DNA from: Chthoniobacter flavus
GTDB lineage: Bacteria > Verrucomicrobiota > Verrucomicrobiia > Chthoniobacterales > JACTMZ01
Assembly: GCA_945878135.1 (NCBI GenBank)
Contig: CAMDUL010000010.1
Location: forward strand, 10,022-74,021
Length of the DNA stretch: 64,000 nt
Reading direction: 5' to 3'
Part shown: positions 9,640-64,000 of the stretch, one piece after another
Position numbering within the stretch: position 1 is the first letter of the stretch
How the letters are laid out: the number at the start of each line of letters is the position of its first letter
Notes under the pieces: generated by a model
Seen by the model: only the letters and a program-made list of their open reading frames with translations
Told to the model about the DNA's origin: nothing
The model's database searches: none
Translations under genes and position numbers: made by a program

Positions 9640-10727
9640 AAAGCGGCCTCCCGGGCCGCGAGGGCCCCGTTTTCCTCGAGAATCTGACGGCTCATCTCGC
9701 GCGCGAAGCGGTCCGGGCTGCCGGTCATGGCCACGGTCAAAGCCTCGCGTCCTTCCGTCCCCAGATTCCAGAGCGCCTGCGCAGCGGAGAATCGCACCCA
9801 CCAGGAGCTGTCCCGCAGGGCATCGCTCAGCAGACCGGCATGCTTGACGGACCGCATCCGGCCGAGGGACTGCATGACAACATTGCGCACTTCCCAGGCA
9901 GGATCGCCGGCCAAGCGGGCCACGGCTTCGGCGGTGCCGTGGTCTCCGATCAGTCCGAGGGAACGAACCGCATTGAGGCGGACGCGGAAGTCAGAGCGTC
10001 CGAGCAGCGCGGTGATCGGTTCGACCGCTTCGTCGATGCGCAGGAGACCAAGAACGCGCACGGCCACATCGACCGCGCTGTCCGAGTAGGTCCCGTCTTC
10101 GTTTTCGAGAATCTCGAGCAGCGGGTCGGCGGCGGACGGACCGAAGAGGACAAGGACCTCGGCCACGCGGCGCTGGTTCATTTCACCCGGCAAATCGAAA
10201 GCGAGCATGATGTTGCGGATGGTGCGGTTTTCCCCGAGTGCGGCGAGCGAGCGGGCGGCGGCGAAGCGGACAGCGAGCACGGGGTCTTGCAGTGCGTCGA
10301 GGAGGGCCGGCACGGAAACCCCATCGCCGAGGTAGCCGAGTCGGCCGGCCGCTTGCAACCGGCGCTCCCAACGGCGGTTGTGCAGGGCGGCAGACTCCTT
10401 GGTCCGCAAGGGCAGGGAAGTGAAAAGAGTTTCCAATGGCGCGCGCTCGGCCGGCGGGAGGCGGTCCGAGATCTCCATGAGCAGATTGAGGGCGAGCGCA
10501 GGTTGCTCCTGCAGAATGGGCAGGGCCTTGGCCGCGTTGTCGCGTCCGGCCAGAAACGCGTGCACTGCCGGTTCGGCCCGGCGGCGGAACCGCTGGGTGC
10601 GGAGGGTTTCGGCCTGGGCGGCGAGGCGCACCAGCACGATGACGCCAAGGACGACCGCGCTCATGGCGGCGAGCACGAGAGCGATGTCGAAGGCAGTGCG
10701 CAGAAAGTCTGGTCCTAAAATGTCCAT
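9636..10727 (-). CDS. Membrane-anchored HEAT-repeat protein
   Basis: N-terminal TM; repeated motifs of the VRFAAARSL / VRLNAVRSLG / VRFSAAQAL type. Confidence 0.88.
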   Translation of the reverse strand: MDILGPDFLRTAFDIALVLAAMSAVVLGVIVLVRLAAQAETLRTQRFRRRAEPAVHAFLAGRDNAAKALPILQEQPALALNLLMEISDRLPPAERAPLETLFTSLPLRTKESAALHNRRWERRLQAAGRLGYLGDGVSVPALLDALQDPVLAVRFAAARSLAALGENRTIRNIMLAFDLPGEMNQRRVAEVLVLFGPSAADPLLEILENEDGTYSDSAVDVAVRVLGLLRIDEAVEPITALLGRSDFRVRLNAVRSLGLIGDHGTAEAVARLAGDPAWEVRNVVMQSLGRMRSVKHAGLLSDALRDSSWWVRFSAAQALWNLGTEGREALTVAMTGSPDRFAREMSRQILEENGALAAREAAL

Positions 10728-51335: not shown

Positions 51336-51435
51336 GTAGGTCCCAAGCATAACGGACCCCTGCGCGGGTGCAAGTTTTTCAGTGTATCCGTCTGGACTCT
51401 GTCCGTCGGGAGGAGCAATTTCAGTTTCCCGCACG

Positions 51436-54400
51436 ATGAACAAGACCCTGGAGTTTACCCTCAACGGCGAGGCGATCTGTCTGGTCGATGTGTCGCCGAA
51501 CACACCGCTGCTCGACTGGTTGCGGTCCTCGGGGCGCACCGGGTCGAAAGAGGGATGTGCGGAGGGCGACTGCGGCGCGTGTTCGGTGGCGATGATCGAG
51601 GCCGATGCGCGGGGGCGTGCGGTCTGGCGGTCCTTCAACAGCTGCCTGACCCCGCTCGCGCTGGTCCAGGGGCGGGAAATTGTCACGGTCGAAGGGCTGG
51701 GCAACGGGAAGCTGCACCCGGTCCAGCAATGCATGGTGGCCAACCACGGGTCGCAATGCGGCTATTGCACGCCGGGGATCATCATGTCGTTGTTCGAGGG
51801 GTATTACCGCCGGGACCTCGACCGCGATTGGCAGCTGAACGACCAGCTTTGCGGAAATCTCTGCCGTTGCACGGGGTATCGTCCGATCCGGCAGGCCGCG
51901 CTGGAATCCTGGGAAGCGGCGGAAAATGCGGCGAAGGACGAATTCGGGCGGAGATTGAAAAAGGCGGAGGCGGTCCCCGCGGCGGCGGAATACGAAGGCG
52001 GCGAGGCGAAGTTTTTCCGTCCGGATTCCTTGAAAGACTTGTTCCGCCTGCGCAAAAAGCATCCCGAGGCACGTCTCATTGCGGGGGCGACCGAGTTGGG
52101 ACTGGAAATCAGCAAGCGCTTCAAGAAGTTCCCGGCTTTGATTTCCCTCGAATCGGTGCCGGAACTGCGCCGCCTCGAGAAAAAGAAAAGCTGCTGGCAC
52201 ATCGGCGGAGCAGTGACCTTGACGCAATTGGGCGAGGCCATCGCGGAGGATTTTCCCATGTGGGCCAAGATGCTCTGGGTCTTCGGCGCGCGCCAGATCC
52301 GCAACCGCGCGACGCTGGGGGGGAATTTGGTCACGGCTTCGCCGATCGGCGATTCCGCTCCGGTCTTGCTCGCCTTGGGCGCGGACGTCGTGCTGGCTTC
52401 GCCCCGGGGCAAGCGCACGGTCCCCATGGCGGATTTCTTCACCGGCTACCGCAAGACGGCGCTCAAGCCGGATGAAATTCTGCTCGAGGTGACGGTCGGA
52501 GCGGGCGCGCCGCCGAAAGGCCTGACGCGTCGCCGTGAGTGGTTCAAGGTTTCCAAGCGGCGCGAGATGGACATCAGCACGGTGTCCGCGGCCTTCCAGG
52601 TCGAGACCGACCGCAACCATGTCGTGACCGACGTCCGTCTGGCGTTCGGCGGCGTGGCGGCCACGCCGGCACGGGCCGTGCGGACCGAAAAATTTCTCCG
52701 CGGCAAGGTATGGAACGAAGAAACCGTGGCCGGGGCCTGTACGGTGCTGGCCAAGGAATTCCAACCGATCAGCGATGCGCGCGGCGGCGCCGATTACCGG
52801 GCGGGATTGATTGTCAGTCTGCTCGAGAAATTTTACCGCGAACCCGCATGGTCCGAGGACACTGCGCCTTTGCCCGAACCGGTCGTCCCGGCCGACCGTC
52901 CGCTGCCCCACGAAAGCGCGGCCAAGCATGTCACCGGCGAGGCGCTTTACACCGATGACATCGCCCTGCGCGGCGGTCGGGCTCTCGAGGTCTGGCCGGT
53001 GCACTCGCCGCATGCCCGCGCCAAGATCAAGAAGTTGGATGTCTCCGCCGCGCGCAAAATGCCCGGCATTCATGCCGTGCTCACGGCGTCCGATGTTCCC
53101 GGGATCAACGACATCGGGGCGGTGCGCAAGGATGAGGAACTTCTCGCCGCGACGGTGGCGCAATTCCACGGACACATAGTTGCCGTGGTGGTCGGCGAAA
53201 CGGCCGACCAGTGCCGCGCCGCGGCGGAGAAGATTGTCGCCAGCTACGAAGTGTTGAAGCCGGTGCTGACCATCGAGCAGGGGATCGCGGAGCAGAGTTT
53301 CCACAGCGAACCGAATTTCATGCGCCGCGGCGACGTCGATGCGGCGCTGGCCGCCGCGCCTCGTCTTCTGGAAGGAACCTTCTCCCTCGGCGGGCAGGAC
53401 CATTTTTATCTCGAGATGCAGGCCGCCTACGCCGAACCGGGCGAGGACGGGACGGTCCACGTCACCAGTTCGACCCAGCATCCGACCGAGGTGCAGCACG
53501 GGGTGGCGCACGTTTTGGGGATCCCGTCGAACAAGGTCGTGGTCACCGTGCCGCGGATGGGCGGCGGCTTCGGGGGCAAGGAAACCCAGGCCGCCACGCC
53601 GGCCGCGCTGGCCGCGTTGGCCGCGCAGGTCACCGGGCGTCCGGCGCGTATGCGTTTCAACCGCGATCAGGACATGATGCTGACGGGGAAACGTCATCCC
53701 TTCCTCGCCAAGTTCACCGTCGGCTATGACAATGAGGGCCGCTTGCTCGCCTTGAAATCGGCGCACTACTCGAATGGCGGCTGGGCGCTGGATTTGTCCA
53801 TGCCGGTGACCGACCGCGCCATGTTCCATACGGACAACTGCTATTACATCCCGAACGTCGAGTTGCGCGGGCAGGTGGTGAAGACCAACCTGGCTTCGAA
53901 TACCGCCTTCCGCGGCTTCGGAGGTCCGCAGGGCATGCTGATCATCGAGGAAATCATCGACCGCATTGCGCGCCAGTTGGATTTGCCGCCGGAAGTGGTG
54001 CGTGAGCGGAATCTTTACCATGGCTCGGGCGAGACCAACACCACGCACTACGGTCAGGAGATCGAGGACAACCGCATCCAGCAGGTCTGGCACGATCTGC
54101 GCGGGAACTCGGATTTCTCCGCCCGCCGCGCGGAGATCGAGGCGTGGAATGCGGCGCATCCGCACCGCAAGCGCGGGCTGGCTATGACCCCGGTGAAGTT
54201 CGGCATTTCCTTCACCAACACCATGCTGAACCAAGCCGGGGCGTTGGTGCTGGTTTACACGGACGGTTCCGTCCAGGTGAACCACGGCGGCACGGAAATG
54301 GGCCAGGGGATCAACACCAACATGACGGCCATCGCGGCGCGGGCCCTGGGGCTTCCGGCGGAAAACATCCGCGTGATGTCCACCGCGACGGACAAGGTCC

Positions 54401-55251
54401 CGAACACATCGGCCACCGCCGCCTCGAGCGGCACGGACATGAACGGCATGGCGGTGCAGGACGCGTGCGAGCAAATCATCGCGCGGTTGCGTCCGGTCGC
54501 GGCCGAAATGCTTTCTTCCAAGCTCGGCAAGACCTGCGGGGCGGATGACGTCGGGTTCCGTGACGGACGCGTCTTTCATGCCAAGCATCCGGCCGAGTTT
54601 CTCGGGTTCCGCGACGTCGCCCAGAAAGCGTGGATGCAACGCGTGAGTCTGGCTGCAACGGGTTACTACCGCACGCCGGAGATCCACTGGGACCGCGACG
54701 CGGGGAAGGGGCATCCGTTTTATTATTTCGCCGTCGGTGCGGCGGTCAGCGAGGTGGAAGTCGACGGTTTCACCGGGGACCTGCAGGTGCGGCGGGTCGA
54801 TATTCTTCATGACTGCGGGCAGTCGATCAACGAGGGGATCAACCGCGGACAAATCGAGGGCGGTTTTGTCCAAGGTGTGGGTTGGCTGACCGCGGAGGAA
54901 CTTGTCTGGAATCGCGAGGGCAAACTGCTCACGCATTCGCCGGACACCTACAAAATTCCCGCGGTGGGCGACATGCCGCGGGATTTCCGCGTGCGATTGC
55001 TGGCCGACGCGCCGAATCCGAAGCAGACGATCGGGCGGAGCAAGGCGGTGGGCGAACCACCCTTCATGCTGGCCATCTCGGTGCGGGAAGCGATCCGCGA
55101 TGCGGTGGCGGCGTTCGGTCCGGGCGGACGGCAAGTGCGTTTGTCCTCACCGGCCACGGGCGAAGCCATTTTCCGCGCCATCCGTGAACAACAGATGCCG
55201 GACTTCAAGGGCGCGCCAGTCGAGGCGGTGCCCCGCGGGGTCTTGGTGTAG
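51436..55251 (+). CDS. xdhAB: Xanthine dehydrogenase, fused XdhA (2Fe-2S/FAD) + XdhB (molybdopterin)
   Basis: GCAEGDCGAC, SQCGYCTPG, GNLCRCTGY, RMGGGFGGKE, AFRGFGGPQG, SKAVGEPP. Confidence 0.93.
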   Translation: MNKTLEFTLNGEAICLVDVSPNTPLLDWLRSSGRTGSKEGCAEGDCGACSVAMIEADARGRAVWRSFNSCLTPLALVQGREIVTVEGLGNGKLHPVQQCMVANHGSQCGYCTPGIIMSLFEGYYRRDLDRDWQLNDQLCGNLCRCTGYRPIRQAALESWEAAENAAKDEFGRRLKKAEAVPAAAEYEGGEAKFFRPDSLKDLFRLRKKHPEARLIAGATELGLEISKRFKKFPALISLESVPELRRLEKKKSCWHIGGAVTLTQLGEAIAEDFPMWAKMLWVFGARQIRNRATLGGNLVTASPIGDSAPVLLALGADVVLASPRGKRTVPMADFFTGYRKTALKPDEILLEVTVGAGAPPKGLTRRREWFKVSKRREMDISTVSAAFQVETDRNHVVTDVRLAFGGVAATPARAVRTEKFLRGKVWNEETVAGACTVLAKEFQPISDARGGADYRAGLIVSLLEKFYREPAWSEDTAPLPEPVVPADRPLPHESAAKHVTGEALYTDDIALRGGRALEVWPVHSPHARAKIKKLDVSAARKMPGIHAVLTASDVPGINDIGAVRKDEELLAATVAQFHGHIVAVVVGETADQCRAAAEKIVASYEVLKPVLTIEQGIAEQSFHSEPNFMRRGDVDAALAAAPRLLEGTFSLGGQDHFYLEMQAAYAEPGEDGTVHVTSSTQHPTEVQHGVAHVLGIPSNKVVVTVPRMGGGFGGKETQAATPAALAALAAQVTGRPARMRFNRDQDMMLTGKRHPFLAKFTVGYDNEGRLLALKSAHYSNGGWALDLSMPVTDRAMFHTDNCYYIPNVELRGQVVKTNLASNTAFRGFGGPQGMLIIEEIIDRIARQLDLPPEVVRERNLYHGSGETNTTHYGQEIEDNRIQQVWHDLRGNSDFSARRAEIEAWNAAHPHRKRGLAMTPVKFGISFTNTMLNQAGALVLVYTDGSVQVNHGGTEMGQGINTNMTAIAARALGLPAENIRVMSTATDKVPNTSATAASSGTDMNGMAVQDACEQIIARLRPVAAEMLSSKLGKTCGADDVGFRDGRVFHAKHPAEFLGFRDVAQKAWMQRVSLAATGYYRTPEIHWDRDAGKGHPFYYFAVGAAVSEVEVDGFTGDLQVRRVDILHDCGQSINEGINRGQIEGGFVQGVGWLTAEELVWNREGKLLTHSPDTYKIPAVGDMPRDFRVRLLADAPNPKQTIGRSKAVGEPPFMLAISVREAIRDAVAAFGPGGRQVRLSSPATGEAIFRAIREQQMPDFKGAPVEAVPRGVLV

Positions 55252-59946: not shown

Positions 59947-61128
59947 ATGACGGCACTTTTGGCACTGGAGGACGGCAGGGTTTTTCGCGGCGAGGCGTTC
60001 GGGGCATCCGGCACGACGACCGGGGAGATTTGCTTCAACACATCGTTGAGCGGCTATCAGGAGGTGCTGACCGATCCTTCGTATTTCGGGCAGATCGTGG
60101 CCATGACCAATCCGCACATCGGCAACTACGGCATCAACGTGCTCGACGAGGAGGCGCGGGGTCCGCAGGTGCGGGGGCTGGTCATCGAAGAGTTGAGCGA
60201 AGCGCCGAGCAATTGGCGGTCCGAGGAATCGCTTCATGACTATTTGCACCGCCACGGAATCCCGGGCATCCAGGAAGTCGACACGCGCGCGTTGACCAAG
60301 CACCTGCGCCAAGCGGGGGCGATGAAGGCCTGCCTGACCACGGAGGCGATGACCCCGGAACAGGCGGTCGATCGTGCCAGGCGGGGAGACGGCGTGGTCG
60401 GGATGGATTTTGTCCGCGAGGTGACACCGAAGCAGGCTTTTGATTGGGATCCGACCGACGCGGAGAGCCGTCCGTGGAAGCTGACCCAAGCCGGCAACCA
60501 GGCCGGAGAATTGCGCGATGCTTTGGGCAATGCTTTCGGGTTCCTTCCGCCGGTGCGCCACCGTGTGGTGGCCTACGACTTCGGTATGAAGCGGAATATC
60601 CTGCGCGGTCTGCGTCAGCGCGGCCTGGCTGTGCGGGTGGTTCCGGCGGACACCTCCGCGGAGGATGTCCTCGCCATGGAGCCGGACGGTATTTTTCTCT
60701 CCAACGGCCCGGGCGATCCCGGGGCGCTCGACTACATCCACAAAAACGTCCGCGTCCTCCTCGGCAAGAAGCCGATTTTCGGCATTTGTCTCGGCCACCA
60801 GATCCTCGGCTATGCGCTGGGCGGGAAGACCTTCAAATTGAAATTCGGCCACCGCGGCGGCAACCAGCCGGTCAAAGACCTCACGACCGGCCGGGTCTCG
60901 ATCACCGCGCAGAACCACGGTTTTGCCGTCGACCCGGAATCCTTGCCCTCCGATGTCGAGGTCACCCACATCAATCTCAACGACGGGACGGTCGAGGGTT
61001 TGCGCAGCAAATCCATGCCGGTTTTCAGCGTCCAATACCATCCCGAGGCCGCACCGGGACCGCATGATGCGGAATACTTTTTCGACCAGTTCGCCAATCT
61101 CATTGATGAGACCGCGGCCAAACGGTAG
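59947..61128 (+). CDS. carA: Carbamoyl-phosphate synthase small subunit
   Basis: [45 protein letters not shown]. Confidence 0.97.
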
Positions 61129-61140
61129 TCTCCGGCCATC

Positions 61141-61662
61141 ATGCGCTTGACCGTCTATTTCCCCGAGGACAGCCCGACGATCCACGAGTTTGTCGGCCAT
61201 AAATTGACCGTAGGACGCTTGGTCGACAATGATGTCACGCTCGACGACGGGTCGGTCTCCGGGCGCCATGCGGAGGTGGATCTGGGCGGCGACGTGGCCG
61301 TCCTGCGCGACCTCGGTTCGACCAACGGCACTTTTCTCAATGGCGAGCAGGTGACCGGAGAGGCCGCTTTGCGCGAGGGCGATGAGATTTATTTCGGAGC
61401 CGTCCGCAGTGTCTTCATGGAGGCGGCTCCGGCTGCGGTTGCCGAATCGGAGGAGGCTCTTGTTGCCGCTGCCCCTGCCATGGCTGCGCCCGTGTTTGCC
61501 GTGTCGGACTCCGGCACCGGGCGTCCGGCCAACTTCCGCTACCTCTCATCCATGCCGCGCGCCGTCGTTCCGCGCGACACGCTGGCTCTGGTCGCATGGT
61601 CTTGCGCCGGCCTCGGTGTGCTCGCCGCAGCTTACGCCCTGTTTGCCATTTTCACGGCCTGA
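61141..61662 (+). CDS. FHA domain protein with C-terminal TM helix
   Basis: VGR...ND, SVSGRHA, DLGSTNGTFLNG. Confidence 0.9.
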   Translation: MRLTVYFPEDSPTIHEFVGHKLTVGRLVDNDVTLDDGSVSGRHAEVDLGGDVAVLRDLGSTNGTFLNGEQVTGEAALREGDEIYFGAVRSVFMEAAPAAVAESEEALVAAAPAMAAPVFAVSDSGTGRPANFRYLSSMPRAVVPRDTLALVAWSCAGLGVLAAAYALFAIFTA

Positions 61663-61732: not shown

Positions 61733-61900
61733 TCAGAAGGCAAAGGTGAGTTGGCTGGGCCGGGGCGCGGTCCGGGGATGCGCGGCGCGGCGGGCCAGGA
61801 GGTTGCGTTTGATCAGCGCGAAGAGGTGGGCGCCCAGCTCGTGGGGCAGGGGTTCTTCTTCGCGCCGGCGGCGGGATACGGATTGGTTTTTGTCTTTCAT
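61733..61900 (-). CDS. 55-aa protein divergent from the WYL regulator, with a C-terminal clamp-binding-like motif
   Basis: MKDKNQ...PRPSQLTFAF*; ATG lies 42 bp from the WYL start. Confidence 0.55.
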   Translation of the reverse strand: MKDKNQSVSRRRREEEPLPHELGAHLFALIKRNLLARRAAHPRTAPRPSQLTFAF

Positions 61901-61915
61901 CGCCTGCGAGTTTGC

Positions 61916-61947
61916 GGCATGGGGTAAGACATTCGCTGTCCCATGCC
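61916..61947. promoter_or_regulatory. Palindromic candidate WYL operator
   Basis: GACA-N5-TGTC (61928-61940) within the GGCATGGG...CCCATGCC inverted repeat between the divergent starts. Confidence 0.45.
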
Positions 61948-62989
61948 CAAAAAAATTCTTCCCCGCCCCCGCTCCGGTGCCTCCGCCGGCGCGACCCGTC
62001 CGCCCATGGAGCGCATGTGGCGCATCCACCAGGAGGTTTCCGGCGGCGGCTACCCGAACTGCCGGGGTTTGGCCGCCACTCTCGAGGTCTCGGCCAAGAC
62101 GGTGATGCGCGACGTGGAGTTCCTGCGCGACCGTCTCGGTTTGCCGCTGGAGTATGACGCGGTGAAGCACGGGTTTCACTACACCGCGCCGGTGCGTGAT
62201 TTTCCGGTCATGAAAGTCTCGCAGGGCGAGGTGGCCGCGCTCTTGCTGGCGCAGAAGTCGCTCGAGCAATTCCGCGGCACGGCCTTCGAGCGTCCGCTGG
62301 CCGCCGCTTTCCGCAAGCTGAGCCATTCGCTCGGCGGGGATATGGAGATCGCCTGGCACGAACTCGAGCAGGCGCTTTCCGTGCGCAGCAGCGGCGCCGG
62401 CCTGGCCGACATGCAGGTCTTCGACGCTTTGGCCAAGGCGGTGATGGACGGCGACGAGGTTGCCTTCGCTTACCACAAACTGTCCGGCGAAAAGCCGGAA
62501 CCGCGCACCGTGCAGCCCTACCACCTCGGCTGTATCGAGAACCAGTGGTATCTCTTCGCCCACGACTGCGCGCGCGGCGCCGTGCGCACCTTCGCCTTGC
62601 CACGGATCCGCGGGGTGGAAAAAACCGGGGGCAAGTTCCGGCGTCCGGCCGGCTTTTCCCTGGCCAAGATCCTCGAGGGCAGTTTTGCCGTCTTCGAGGG
62701 CGGACGCGCGGTCCGTGTCCGCCTGCGTTTCACGGGCGTGGCCGCCCGCCTCGTCGGCGAGCGCGTCTGGCATGCCTCGCAGCAACTGGTCCGCGACAAA
62801 ACGGGGCTCGTGCTGGAGATGAAAGTCGGACTCTCGCCCGATCTGCGCCAGTGGATTCTCGGTTGGGGGGGTGAGGCCGAAGTGCTGGAACCGGCGGACC
62901 TGCGGCGCGAACTGGCCCGGGCGGCGGCCGCCGCGGTGCGGGTGCACGGAGACGGCACGAAACGTGCCCGTGGAAACTGCCGCCCATAG
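61943..62989 (+). CDS. HTH-WYL-WCX transcriptional regulator (YafY/PafBC/DriD-like)
   Basis: LAATLEVSAKTVMRDVEFLR wHTH; RTVQPYHL, NQWYLFA, RTFALPRI; WILGWG.EAEVLEP..LR. Confidence 0.93.
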   Translation: MPKKILPRPRSGASAGATRPPMERMWRIHQEVSGGGYPNCRGLAATLEVSAKTVMRDVEFLRDRLGLPLEYDAVKHGFHYTAPVRDFPVMKVSQGEVAALLLAQKSLEQFRGTAFERPLAAAFRKLSHSLGGDMEIAWHELEQALSVRSSGAGLADMQVFDALAKAVMDGDEVAFAYHKLSGEKPEPRTVQPYHLGCIENQWYLFAHDCARGAVRTFALPRIRGVEKTGGKFRRPAGFSLAKILEGSFAVFEGGRAVRVRLRFTGVAARLVGERVWHASQQLVRDKTGLVLEMKVGLSPDLRQWILGWGGEAEVLEPADLRRELARAAAAAVRVHGDGTKRARGNCRP

Positions 62990-63145
62990 CCGGTCTCCGC
63001 CGTGGGTGTCGGGCCTCGGGTGGAGCTTGGCGCGGCGGGGGTGCAGCTTTAGTTTTGCGGCGTGTCCACACTGCCCGAGCCGGAAGCCGCCGCCTTCACT
63101 TGTCCTTTCAGCGGCAAGGTGTGGGCTGCCGATGGCAGTGCCTTG

Positions 63146-64000
63146 ATGCCTGCGCCGGGGAGCGAGCAGATCGACCGCGCGGCGGCGGCTGTGGAATTCC
63201 TACGGCAATTCGCGCAGGAAACGGGCTGTGATGTTCCTCCGTCGCGGATCGAGGCGGTCCGCAGCGAGATAGCCGCCCGCGGTTGGTATCGGCAGACTTT
63301 CGAAGAACTCGAGTATGCCTGCCGTCTGGCTTGGCGGAACAACCGCCGGTGCATCGGACGCCGTTTTTGGCCGACGCTCGAGCTGGCCGATGCGCGCGAG
63401 GCCGTCACGGCGGGCGAAATTTTCGACGCTTGCGTGGAGCATCTGCGCCGCTCGACCAACGGGGGCAAGATCAAGCCGCTGATCACGGTCTTCGCCCCGG
63501 CCGATGGCGAGGGCGTCGGGCCGATCATCCACAACTATCAACTCATCCGCTACGCAGGCTATCAGGAGGCGGACGGTCAGGTTTTGGGGGATCCGGCGGA
63601 GGTGGCCTTCACCGAGCGAGTCATGGGGGCCGGATGGCGTCCGCCGGCGAAGCGCGGTGCCTTCGACCTTTTGCCCCTGCTGATCGAAGCGCCGGGCGAG
63701 GGGGAGAAACTTTTCGAGTTGCCCGGCGATGCCGTCCTCGAGGTGCCGATCTCGCATCCGGGCTTTGCGTGGTTCGCGGACCTGGGATTGAAATGGCACG
63801 CACTGCCGGCGGTGTCGAACATGGCGCTCGAGACCGGCGGAGTGAACTATCCGGCGGCACCTTTCAGCGGCTACTACATGGAGACGGAAATCGCCGCGCG
63901 CAACTTCGGCGACACTTCGCGCTACAATCTCCTGCCGGTCGTGGCCGACCGGATGGATCGCTCGATGCGGGCCAAGGATCCGTTCTGGCGCGACCGTGCG
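63146..64000 (+). CDS. nos: Nitric oxide synthase oxygenase (partial, runs off the 3' end)
   Basis: Manual translation: AWRNNRRCIGR (heme thiolate Cys), STNGGKIKP.ITVF, NYQLIRYAGY, GDPA, FDLLPL, LGLKWHALPAVSNM, APFSGYYMETEIAARNFGD..RYNLL. Confidence 0.93.
   Translation, partial: MPAPGSEQIDRAAAAVEFLRQFAQETGCDVPPSRIEAVRSEIAARGWYRQTFEELEYACRLAWRNNRRCIGRRFWPTLELADAREAVTAGEIFDACVEHLRRSTNGGKIKPLITVFAPADGEGVGPIIHNYQLIRYAGYQEADGQVLGDPAEVAFTERVMGAGWRPPAKRGAFDLLPLLIEAPGEGEKLFELPGDAVLEVPISHPGFAWFADLGLKWHALPAVSNMALETGGVNYPAAPFSGYYMETEIAARNFGDTSRYNLLPVVADRMDRSMRAKDPFWRDRA

Follow-up and report, generated by a model that had tools for sequence, protein, structure and literature searches.

At the 3′ end of the 64,000-nucleotide (nt) stretch analysed here (the window; positions 10,022 to 74,021 of contig CAMDUL010000010.1, Chthoniobacter flavus assembly GCA_945878135.1), an open frame on the plus strand begins at the GTG codon 63062, reaches the last letter of the window at 64000 and comprises the first 313 of the 395 codons of a nitric oxide synthase (NOS) oxygenase gene. 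We consider it likely that this gene specifies a complete, stand-alone, bacterial-type NOS oxygenase of a freshwater member of the Chthoniobacterales, that it is served by its own leaderless promoter, and that its position next to a gene for a WYL-domain transcription regulator stems from genome rearrangement. The assembly (here G000, the window being its contig C10:10022–74021) consists of 2.64 Mb in 56 contigs and is 91% complete. A preliminary description of the window, made from its letters and a list of open reading frames (ORFs), had already read the gene as a NOS and had proposed a mammalian-type release of nitric oxide (NO), an unexpected host lineage and a possible tie to the regulator.

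Within the window, the 313-residue part of the frame, open at its 3′ end, matches the profile PF02898 with an E-value of 1.2e-102 (profile positions 7–279 of 362). When completed with further contig sequence past the window end (L002), the ORF comprises 395 amino acids (L002:3084–4271), with the stop codon 249 nt beyond the window, and the full-length protein matches the same profile with an E-value of 9e-139 and a score of 462.8 bits (curated cut-off, 22.7) over positions 7–357 of 362, i.e., 351 positions. The protein is therefore a real NOS oxygenase, as had been read, and it was missing from the ORF list because its frame overruns the window. No frameshift or truncation was seen in the ORF on the contig. 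Whether a reductase or a globin was fused to the oxygenase had been left to the DNA beyond the window; in the extended contig the frame closes at 395 amino acids with no second Pfam domain, and a fused reductase, a globin and a calmodulin site are all absent from the protein.

The nearest named relatives of this NOS, 77–82% identical over the whole length, belong to metagenome-assembled genomes (MAGs) labelled Chthoniobacterales or Verrucomicrobiota, which bears out the earlier assignment of the host to the verrucomicrobia. More remote relatives, with 55–64% identity, are found in Rubritalea, Luteolibacter, Haloferula, and Akkermansiaceae. PF02898 was detected in 14 of 30 congeners, in 2 of 16 other families of the order, and in 18 of 400 sampled genomes of the phylum, the latter representing 15 of 185 genera including the window's own. 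Many relatives already carry the name "nitric oxide synthase oxygenase" given by NCBI or JGI, and a 2017 study mentions NOS genes in several freshwater verrucomicrobial MAGs (PMC5673642). In view of these occurrences the lineage can no longer be called unexpected: the gene is an ordinary member of an already annotated, patchily distributed verrucomicrobial NOS clade. Our literature search returned no paper characterising a verrucomicrobial NOS.

Catalytic residues, fold and distal gate

The best sequence matches among solved structures are the Geobacillus NOS 2flq (E-value 3e-106) and the haem domains of eNOS, nNOS, and iNOS (E-values of about 1e-103 to 1e-101). The AlphaFold2 model of the protein has a mean pLDDT of 91.7, and its best structural matches are eNOS haem domains (Z about 48, root-mean-square deviation 2.6–3.1, 375–381 residues aligned). 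Key positions were mapped in the 120 nearest homologues and in 150 diverse representatives of the family (50%-identity clusters). The haem-thiolate Cys97, situated in the motif R-C-[IV]-G-R, and the proximal Trp91 six residues earlier are both present in 118 of the nearest and 141 of the diverse homologues. The substrate-binding Glu276 of the TEI motif is accompanied by the neighbouring Tyr272, Asn281 is also kept, and the pterin-site set is complete, comprising Arg280, Trp360 and Trp362 (W-x-W), and the C-terminal aromatic residue Phe375. Trp91, Cys97, Glu276, Arg280, and Trp360 are invariant in an alignment of 42 sequences. The NOS fold and the haem, substrate, and pterin residues are intact, and both the haem Cys and the substrate Glu pointed out in the preliminary description (in RCIGR and TEI, respectively) are in place. 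Most of these positions are encoded within the window, as are Cys14 of the CPF motif, His246, Val251, and Tyr271; Trp360 and Trp362 lie beyond it.

The earlier readings WHALPAVSNM and GYYM are likewise correct. In alignments with PDB sequences, the former corresponds to WYALPAVSNM in eNOS and WYAVPIISDM in the Geobacillus enzyme, and GYYMETEI corresponds to GWYMSTEI and GWYMGTEI, respectively.

The residue at the distal gate, Val251, is present as read, but its treatment as a special mammalian trait does not hold. Val occupies this position in 94 of the 120 nearest homologues (Ile in 25, Leu in 1) and in 85 of the 150 diverse representatives (Ile in 55, Leu in 7, another residue or a gap in 3). 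Among the 36 diverse representatives of at most 460 amino acids, i.e., the stand-alone forms, Ile is found in 20, Val in 13, and Leu in 3. The effect of a Val or Ile gate on the kinetics of NO release was reportedly described by Wang and colleagues in 2004. Val is the commoner state in the family, and Ile is not a defining feature of bacterial NOS in general. The review PMC9500659 places Ile at the distal gate of bacterial NOS and Val at that of mammalian NOS; in the form given there, the rule fits Bacillus-type enzymes only.

Two positions of the substrate pocket vary as well. Tyr271 stands in place of the Trp of GWYM, the contact of this pocket Trp being made through the main chain. Tyr is the prevailing residue here in the nearest homologues (88 of 120, with Phe in 17, Trp in 6, and His in 6), and it occurs in 5 of the diverse representatives (Trp in 115, Phe in 23). 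His246 stands in place of the Tyr of WYALP; His is found in 118 of the nearest homologues and in 37 of the diverse representatives, where Tyr (79), Phe (18), and Cys (10) also occur. The combination His-Val-Tyr is present in 67 of the 120 nearest homologues. The replacement of Trp by Tyr271 is a signature of the verrucomicrobial clade and is rare elsewhere; the replacement of Tyr by His246 is common.

Start codon, promoter-like element and N-terminal hairpin

The frame of the gene had been recognised correctly, but the start codon then proposed, ATG 63146 (Met29), is probably too late, because residues 1–28 are conserved in relatives, including the motif CPF[ST]G[KR], and because 7 of 7 related loci retain an in-frame GTG at the place corresponding to 63062. 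GTG 63062 is probably the true start codon. The upstream DNA was aligned for seven loci of the NOS sub-clade (those of G000, G021, G022, G013, and G012, and two named contigs), all of which share the pattern TTGGC[TG]-N17-TA[GA][CT][GT]T-N6 followed by the in-frame GTG, although their upstream genes are unrelated. In the window this pattern is made up of a −35-like hexamer TTGGCG (63027..63032, plus strand), of which TTGGC is invariant in all seven loci, and a −10-like hexamer TAGTTT of the form TAnnnT (63050..63055, plus strand), located 17 nt after the former and 6 nt before the GTG. The window contains a single occurrence of the complete pattern, compared with 0.00 expected from 100 shuffles.

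The geometry of the element is that of a sigma-70-type promoter and, since the −10-like hexamer ends only 6 nt before the GTG, the transcript is predicted to start at the start codon itself, i.e., to be a leaderless mRNA from GTG 63062. A genome-wide search of G000 for TTGnCn-N16-18-TAnnnT before an ATG or GTG followed by at least 150 open codons yielded a peak of spacings at 6 nt, with 15 cases at 6 nt, 10 at 7 nt, and 0–2 at 0–5 nt, which suggests that a set of leaderless genes of this design exists in the genome.

Residues 1–40 of the protein precede the Pfam domain. A Cys-Pro pair located exactly 83/82 residues before the haem Cys, within CPF[ST]G[KR], is found in 43 of the 49 nearest homologues that reach that far. 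In the model, it belongs to a beta-hairpin of residues 12–21 (strands 12–13 and 20–21; pLDDT 72–81), and the structural alignments with mammalian haem domains, which are given as ranges and not as residue pairs, extend to model residue 10. Eukaryote-type NOS representatives carry a Cys-X4-Cys zinc motif about 90 and 85 residues before the haem Cys; the window's NOS is devoid of Cys-X4-Cys and has its conserved single-Cys hairpin at roughly that place. Of the 111 diverse representatives whose N-terminus is sufficiently long, 33 carry Cys-X4-Cys, 21 a single Cys-Pro, 14 another Cys, and 43 none. A global profile–profile alignment with eukaryote-type NOS sets Cys14 opposite the first zinc Cys with low column confidence.

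Bacterial NOS are described in PMC9500659 as devoid of the hook and the zinc site; the verrucomicrobial clade may keep a one-Cys version of this element. Many reductase-fused bacterial NOS have similar single Cys-Pro motifs at the same distance, so that the element may represent an intermediate stage in evolution. A more far-reaching proposal, which we regard as speculative and rather doubtful, is that the Cys14 hairpin is the single-Cys counterpart of the Cys-X4-Cys zinc/hook element, forming a disulfide or a metal site across the dimer axis and closing the pterin pocket, or else that it is a Cys-Pro haem-regulatory motif. If this proposal were true, the hairpin and Val251 together would give this clade of stand-alone bacterial NOS a dimer and pterin architecture resembling that of the mammalian enzymes, along with rapid release of NO. 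The conserved Cys-Pro-Phe hairpin is one modest new point.

The NOS of the Luteolibacter, Haloferula, and Akkermansiaceae type (P0073–P0121) are 318–345 amino acids long and begin 20–35 residues before the haem Cys. As called, they have neither the CPF hairpin nor the N-terminal helices of the Bacillus enzymes; the short N-termini may be real, or the start codons may have been mis-called.

Genomic context and the WYL neighbour

The gene upstream of NOS (61943..62989, plus strand) encodes a WYL-WCX transcription regulator of 348 amino acids, identified with Pfam and resembling PafBC and DriD. Its best solved relative is PafBC (6sj9, E-value 1.9e-20), followed by mycobacterial PafB/PafC; the weaker matches to chains with WYL domains we take to be Caulobacter DriD. 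The view of this protein as a damage-type regulator is reasonable by homology. The regulator gene is preceded on the same strand by a gene for an FHA-domain protein (61141..61662; Pfam) and by an ORF labelled carA (59947..61128; carbamoyl-phosphate synthase small chain, a label obtained from reading the translation), with which the carA-FHA-WYL block starts. The WYL gene is a core gene of the genus: 27 of 30 congeners have an orthologue with 66–92% identity, whether they carry NOS or not, and the whole block is found in 11 of 11 WYL loci examined. In 10 of 11 congener loci, different DNA follows downstream of WYL.

In contrast to the block itself, its adjacency to NOS was observed in 0 of 14 NOS-bearing congeners. 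In 13 of these, WYL and NOS are located on different contigs, and in the fourteenth (G005) no match to WYL was found. Homologues of WYL, FHA, carA, and the downstream beta-lactamase gene were found at 0 of 13 NOS loci of relatives (within 7 kb on either side where the contig allowed) and at 0 of 2 further named NOS contigs. In the closest relative, G017, whose WYL protein is 92% identical, the DNA similarity ends at the WYL stop codon (about position 62977), just before the 72-nt spacer between WYL and NOS (62990..63061, plus strand); about 1 kb after WYL it resumes at an OprB gene, which in G000 is located 9.3 kb downstream. Therefore, NOS is the first gene of a 9.3-kb variable segment that follows immediately on the core carA-FHA-WYL block. 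On the other hand, an independently assembled contig of 2217 nt, about 95% identical, spans positions 61900–63284 across the WYL–NOS junction, so that the junction is not an assembly artefact and the arrangement is stable within the species.

The segment missing in G017 (L002:3000–12277; window 62978 onward) contains NOS, a beta-lactamase-family PEP-CTERM protein, a CBAH hydrolase, a DUF4440 protein, a thiamine pyrophosphate (TPP) enzyme, an OprB porin, and an ORF of 310 amino acids; no integrase, tRNA gene, or flanking repeat was noticed in it. The beta-lactamase-family/PEP-CTERM gene follows NOS on the same strand after 70 nt, the genes for the choloylglycine-hydrolase-family and DUF4440 proteins come next on that strand, and the TPP enzyme and two OprB porins are found after these. 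With the possibility of an integron gene cassette in mind, the 70-nt spacer was examined for an attC-type repeat with a general inverted-repeat search and none was found; a lone GTTAGGC is within chance expectation.

No neighbour gene is common to all NOS loci, and the sub-clades keep contexts of their own, namely, a 587-residue protein with a glycosyltransferase in five genomes and the tig-clpP-clpX block in two. In these two (G012 and G022), NOS is located immediately upstream of tig-clpP-clpX; in G000 this block lies on contig C9 without NOS, and its synteny with the two genomes begins just past the NOS stop codon. In the second NOS sub-clade (65–69% identity, with an ATG start at MNIPTQCPF), NOS is always followed by the gene of the 587-residue protein, which has no Pfam match (L017:8072–9832; homologues in L018, L020, L021, and L022), and then by the glycosyltransferase gene. 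G000 has a copy of this protein with 59% identity, encoded on the minus strand at positions 10263–11927 of C10, i.e., 242–1906 of the window.

A NOS of different layout was observed in the congener G011 (L019:4883–8077). In this protein of 1065 amino acids, two cNMP-binding domains, a BFD-like [2Fe-2S] domain, and some 250 residues with no assignment accompany a C-terminal NOS oxygenase, which shares only 46% identity with the NOS of the window. In G366 and G224, which belong to a different class of the phylum, NOS is surrounded by open frames of 1064 and 1075 amino acids, and many NOS representatives of 1040–1170 amino acids have the same layout.

Proposed function and comparison with known systems

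By analogy with other members of the family, the enzyme would act as a homodimeric haem-thiolate NOS and carry out the two-step oxidation of L-arginine by O2, via N-hydroxy-arginine, to citrulline and NO, a reduced pterin or folate serving as a transient one-electron donor. With Val251 at the gate, NO should escape more quickly than from the Bacillus-type enzymes with their Ile, and the gene would be transcribed from its own predicted promoter, TTGGCG-N17-TAGTTT. The physiological role would most likely be, again by analogy, protection against oxidative or ultraviolet (UV) stress or the tuning of respiration. The chemistry of the family (arginine to N-hydroxy-arginine to citrulline and NO, with pterin or folate and host reductases) is set out in PMC9500659, which also lists stress protection, UV recovery, and the tuning of respiration among the roles of other bacterial NOS.

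Electrons would come from non-dedicated cellular reductases. Since a search of the 91%-complete genome detected no flavodoxin (PF00258), a ferredoxin/FNR-type route is the likely one, although this is our guess. What the genome does have, away from NOS, is a single FNR-type NAD_binding_1 gene, two Fer2 matches, and a single Rrf2 gene. Service of bacterial NOS by non-dedicated reductases was reportedly demonstrated by Gusarov and colleagues in 2008. An ORF of 1289 amino acids in the window (51382–55251, plus strand) contains a 2Fe-2S ferredoxin (Fer2) match at 51457–51654. The same 91%-complete genome gave no match to H-NOX (PF07700) or to globin and flavohaemoglobin (PF00042), and no gene in it stands out as a dedicated NO sensor or dioxygenase. 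A make-and-sense pairing of NOS with FIST-domain proteins was considered and rejected: G000 has one FIST-domain gene, on another contig than NOS, and such genes are present in 11 of the 14 congeners with NOS and in 10 of the 16 without it, which amounts to no association.

The preliminary description had suggested that NOS is linked to the adjacent damage sensor. In its full form, this would mean that NOS belongs to the regulon of the PafBC/DriD-like WYL protein, being co-transcribed with it or activated by damage and yielding NO as a recovery signal as in Deinococcus. We regard this as improbable. The two genes do lie on the same strand with a 72-nt gap and, since the spacer contains no terminator-like hairpin, read-through from WYL into NOS is possible; the regulator is nearest to PafBC; and the junction is retained in the roughly 95% identical contig from another data set, so that the adjacency is stable at the species level. 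Recovery from UV damage is the role assigned to the Deinococcus NOS in PMC9500659. Some of these points count against an independently expressed NOS, and they are joined by others that concern the promoter itself. A consensus promoter scan found no sigma-70-like site in the WYL–NOS spacer, the proposed element matching the Escherichia coli hexamers at about 7 of 12 positions, below the threshold of the scan; the promoter is predicted from comparative conservation and geometry; and no RNA run was present among the sequencing runs matching the stretch, the two matching contig sets being probably DNA.

What speaks against a WYL regulon is that the adjacency is seen in none of the 14 NOS-bearing congeners, that the carA-FHA-WYL block is kept as a core block irrespective of NOS, that the similarity to the nearest relative breaks off at the WYL stop codon, and that NOS carries a conserved promoter-like element of its own. 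A search of the spacer by eye for a PafBC-type promoter motif gave only TGTCGGG at 63007–63013, out of register with the −10-like hexamer, which is evidence neither way. Hence, the resemblance of the neighbour to damage regulators stands, its tie to NOS is not supported, and the adjacency would appear to be a by-product of genome rearrangement and not a regulatory unit. It is about equally improbable that the NOS fold serves an altered chemistry, with another guanidino substrate, with nitrite/nitrate or nitroxyl as the product, or with NO destined for a nitrating or biosynthetic partner. Tyr271 and His246 do deviate from the textbook Trp and Tyr of the substrate pocket and, like the missing flavodoxin, weigh against an ordinary NOS; Trp is kept at the former position in 115 and Tyr at the latter in 79 of the 150 diverse representatives, Tyr, Trp, and Glu are said to hydrogen-bond the substrate, and NOS acting in natural-product nitration exist, according to PMC9500659. 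Yet both replacements are typical of the lineage (88 and 118 of the 120 nearest homologues), position 271 is still aromatic, His at position 246 occurs in 37 of the diverse NOS, Glu276, Tyr272, Arg280, and Asn281 are kept, and no cytochrome P450, nonribosomal peptide synthetase, or other biosynthetic neighbour is conserved at the NOS loci. Finally, the patchy distribution and variable genomic position of the gene might be expected of a passenger gene that moved recently, is decaying or silent, and has no function in its host. We hold this to be very improbable, given the full-length ORF with all key residues, the 77–82% identity to relatives over the whole length, the conserved upstream element, and a guanine-plus-cytosine content of about 66%, similar to that of the flanks.

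The importance of this stand-alone NOS is modest: a well-resolved example is added to an uncharacterised verrucomicrobial clade. It illustrates that the textbook division into bacterial Ile and mammalian Val fails across the NOS family, and that adjacency to a damage-type regulator can be an artefact of rearrangement. The points of remaining interest are the leaderless promoter predicted to be borne by the gene, the Cys-Pro-Phe hairpin, the clade-specific Tyr271, and the lack of a flavodoxin partner; of these, the predicted promoter, the hairpin, and the absence of flavodoxin bear on the expression, dimerisation, and electron supply of a stand-alone NOS, respectively.

Reductase-fused NOS of the type reportedly described from Sorangium cellulosum by Agapie and colleagues in 2009 have the same oxygenase domain, and the window's enzyme differs from them in having no extra domains. 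The stand-alone NOS of Bacillota (Geobacillus stearothermophilus 2flq and Bacillus subtilis) consist, like the window's enzyme, of a single oxygenase domain without a reductase, and the alignment with 2flq covers query residues 60–389. The haem Cys, the proximal Trp, the substrate Glu, the pterin Arg and Trp, and an Asn at the Asp/Asn position are shared with these enzymes, as is the absence of Cys-X4-Cys. In contrast to the Bacillus type, the window's NOS has Val251 instead of Ile and Tyr271 instead of the Trp of GWYM, and it adds an N-terminal extension of about 40 residues with the CPF[ST]G[KR] hairpin.

The likeness to mammalian eNOS, nNOS, and iNOS is comparable in sequence (E-value about 1e-103) and includes the best structural matches (Z 48), Val at the gate, and a WxALPAVSNM segment nearly identical to that of eNOS; the Asn is as in eNOS and in bacterial enzymes. 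The N-terminal Cys is located 83 residues before the haem Cys, compared with about 85 and 90 for the zinc Cys residues of the eukaryote type. Unlike the mammalian enzymes, the window's NOS has no reductase and no calmodulin site, has a single Cys instead of the Cys-X4-Cys pair, and carries the pocket residues Tyr for Trp and His for Tyr. Other verrucomicrobial NOS differ from it in genomic context, which varies by genome, and the Verrucomicrobiales forms (318–345 amino acids) differ also in the absence of the N-terminal extension; nevertheless, all belong to the same clade, with 55–83% identity, and the His-Val-Tyr combination is shared by 67 of the 120 nearest homologues.

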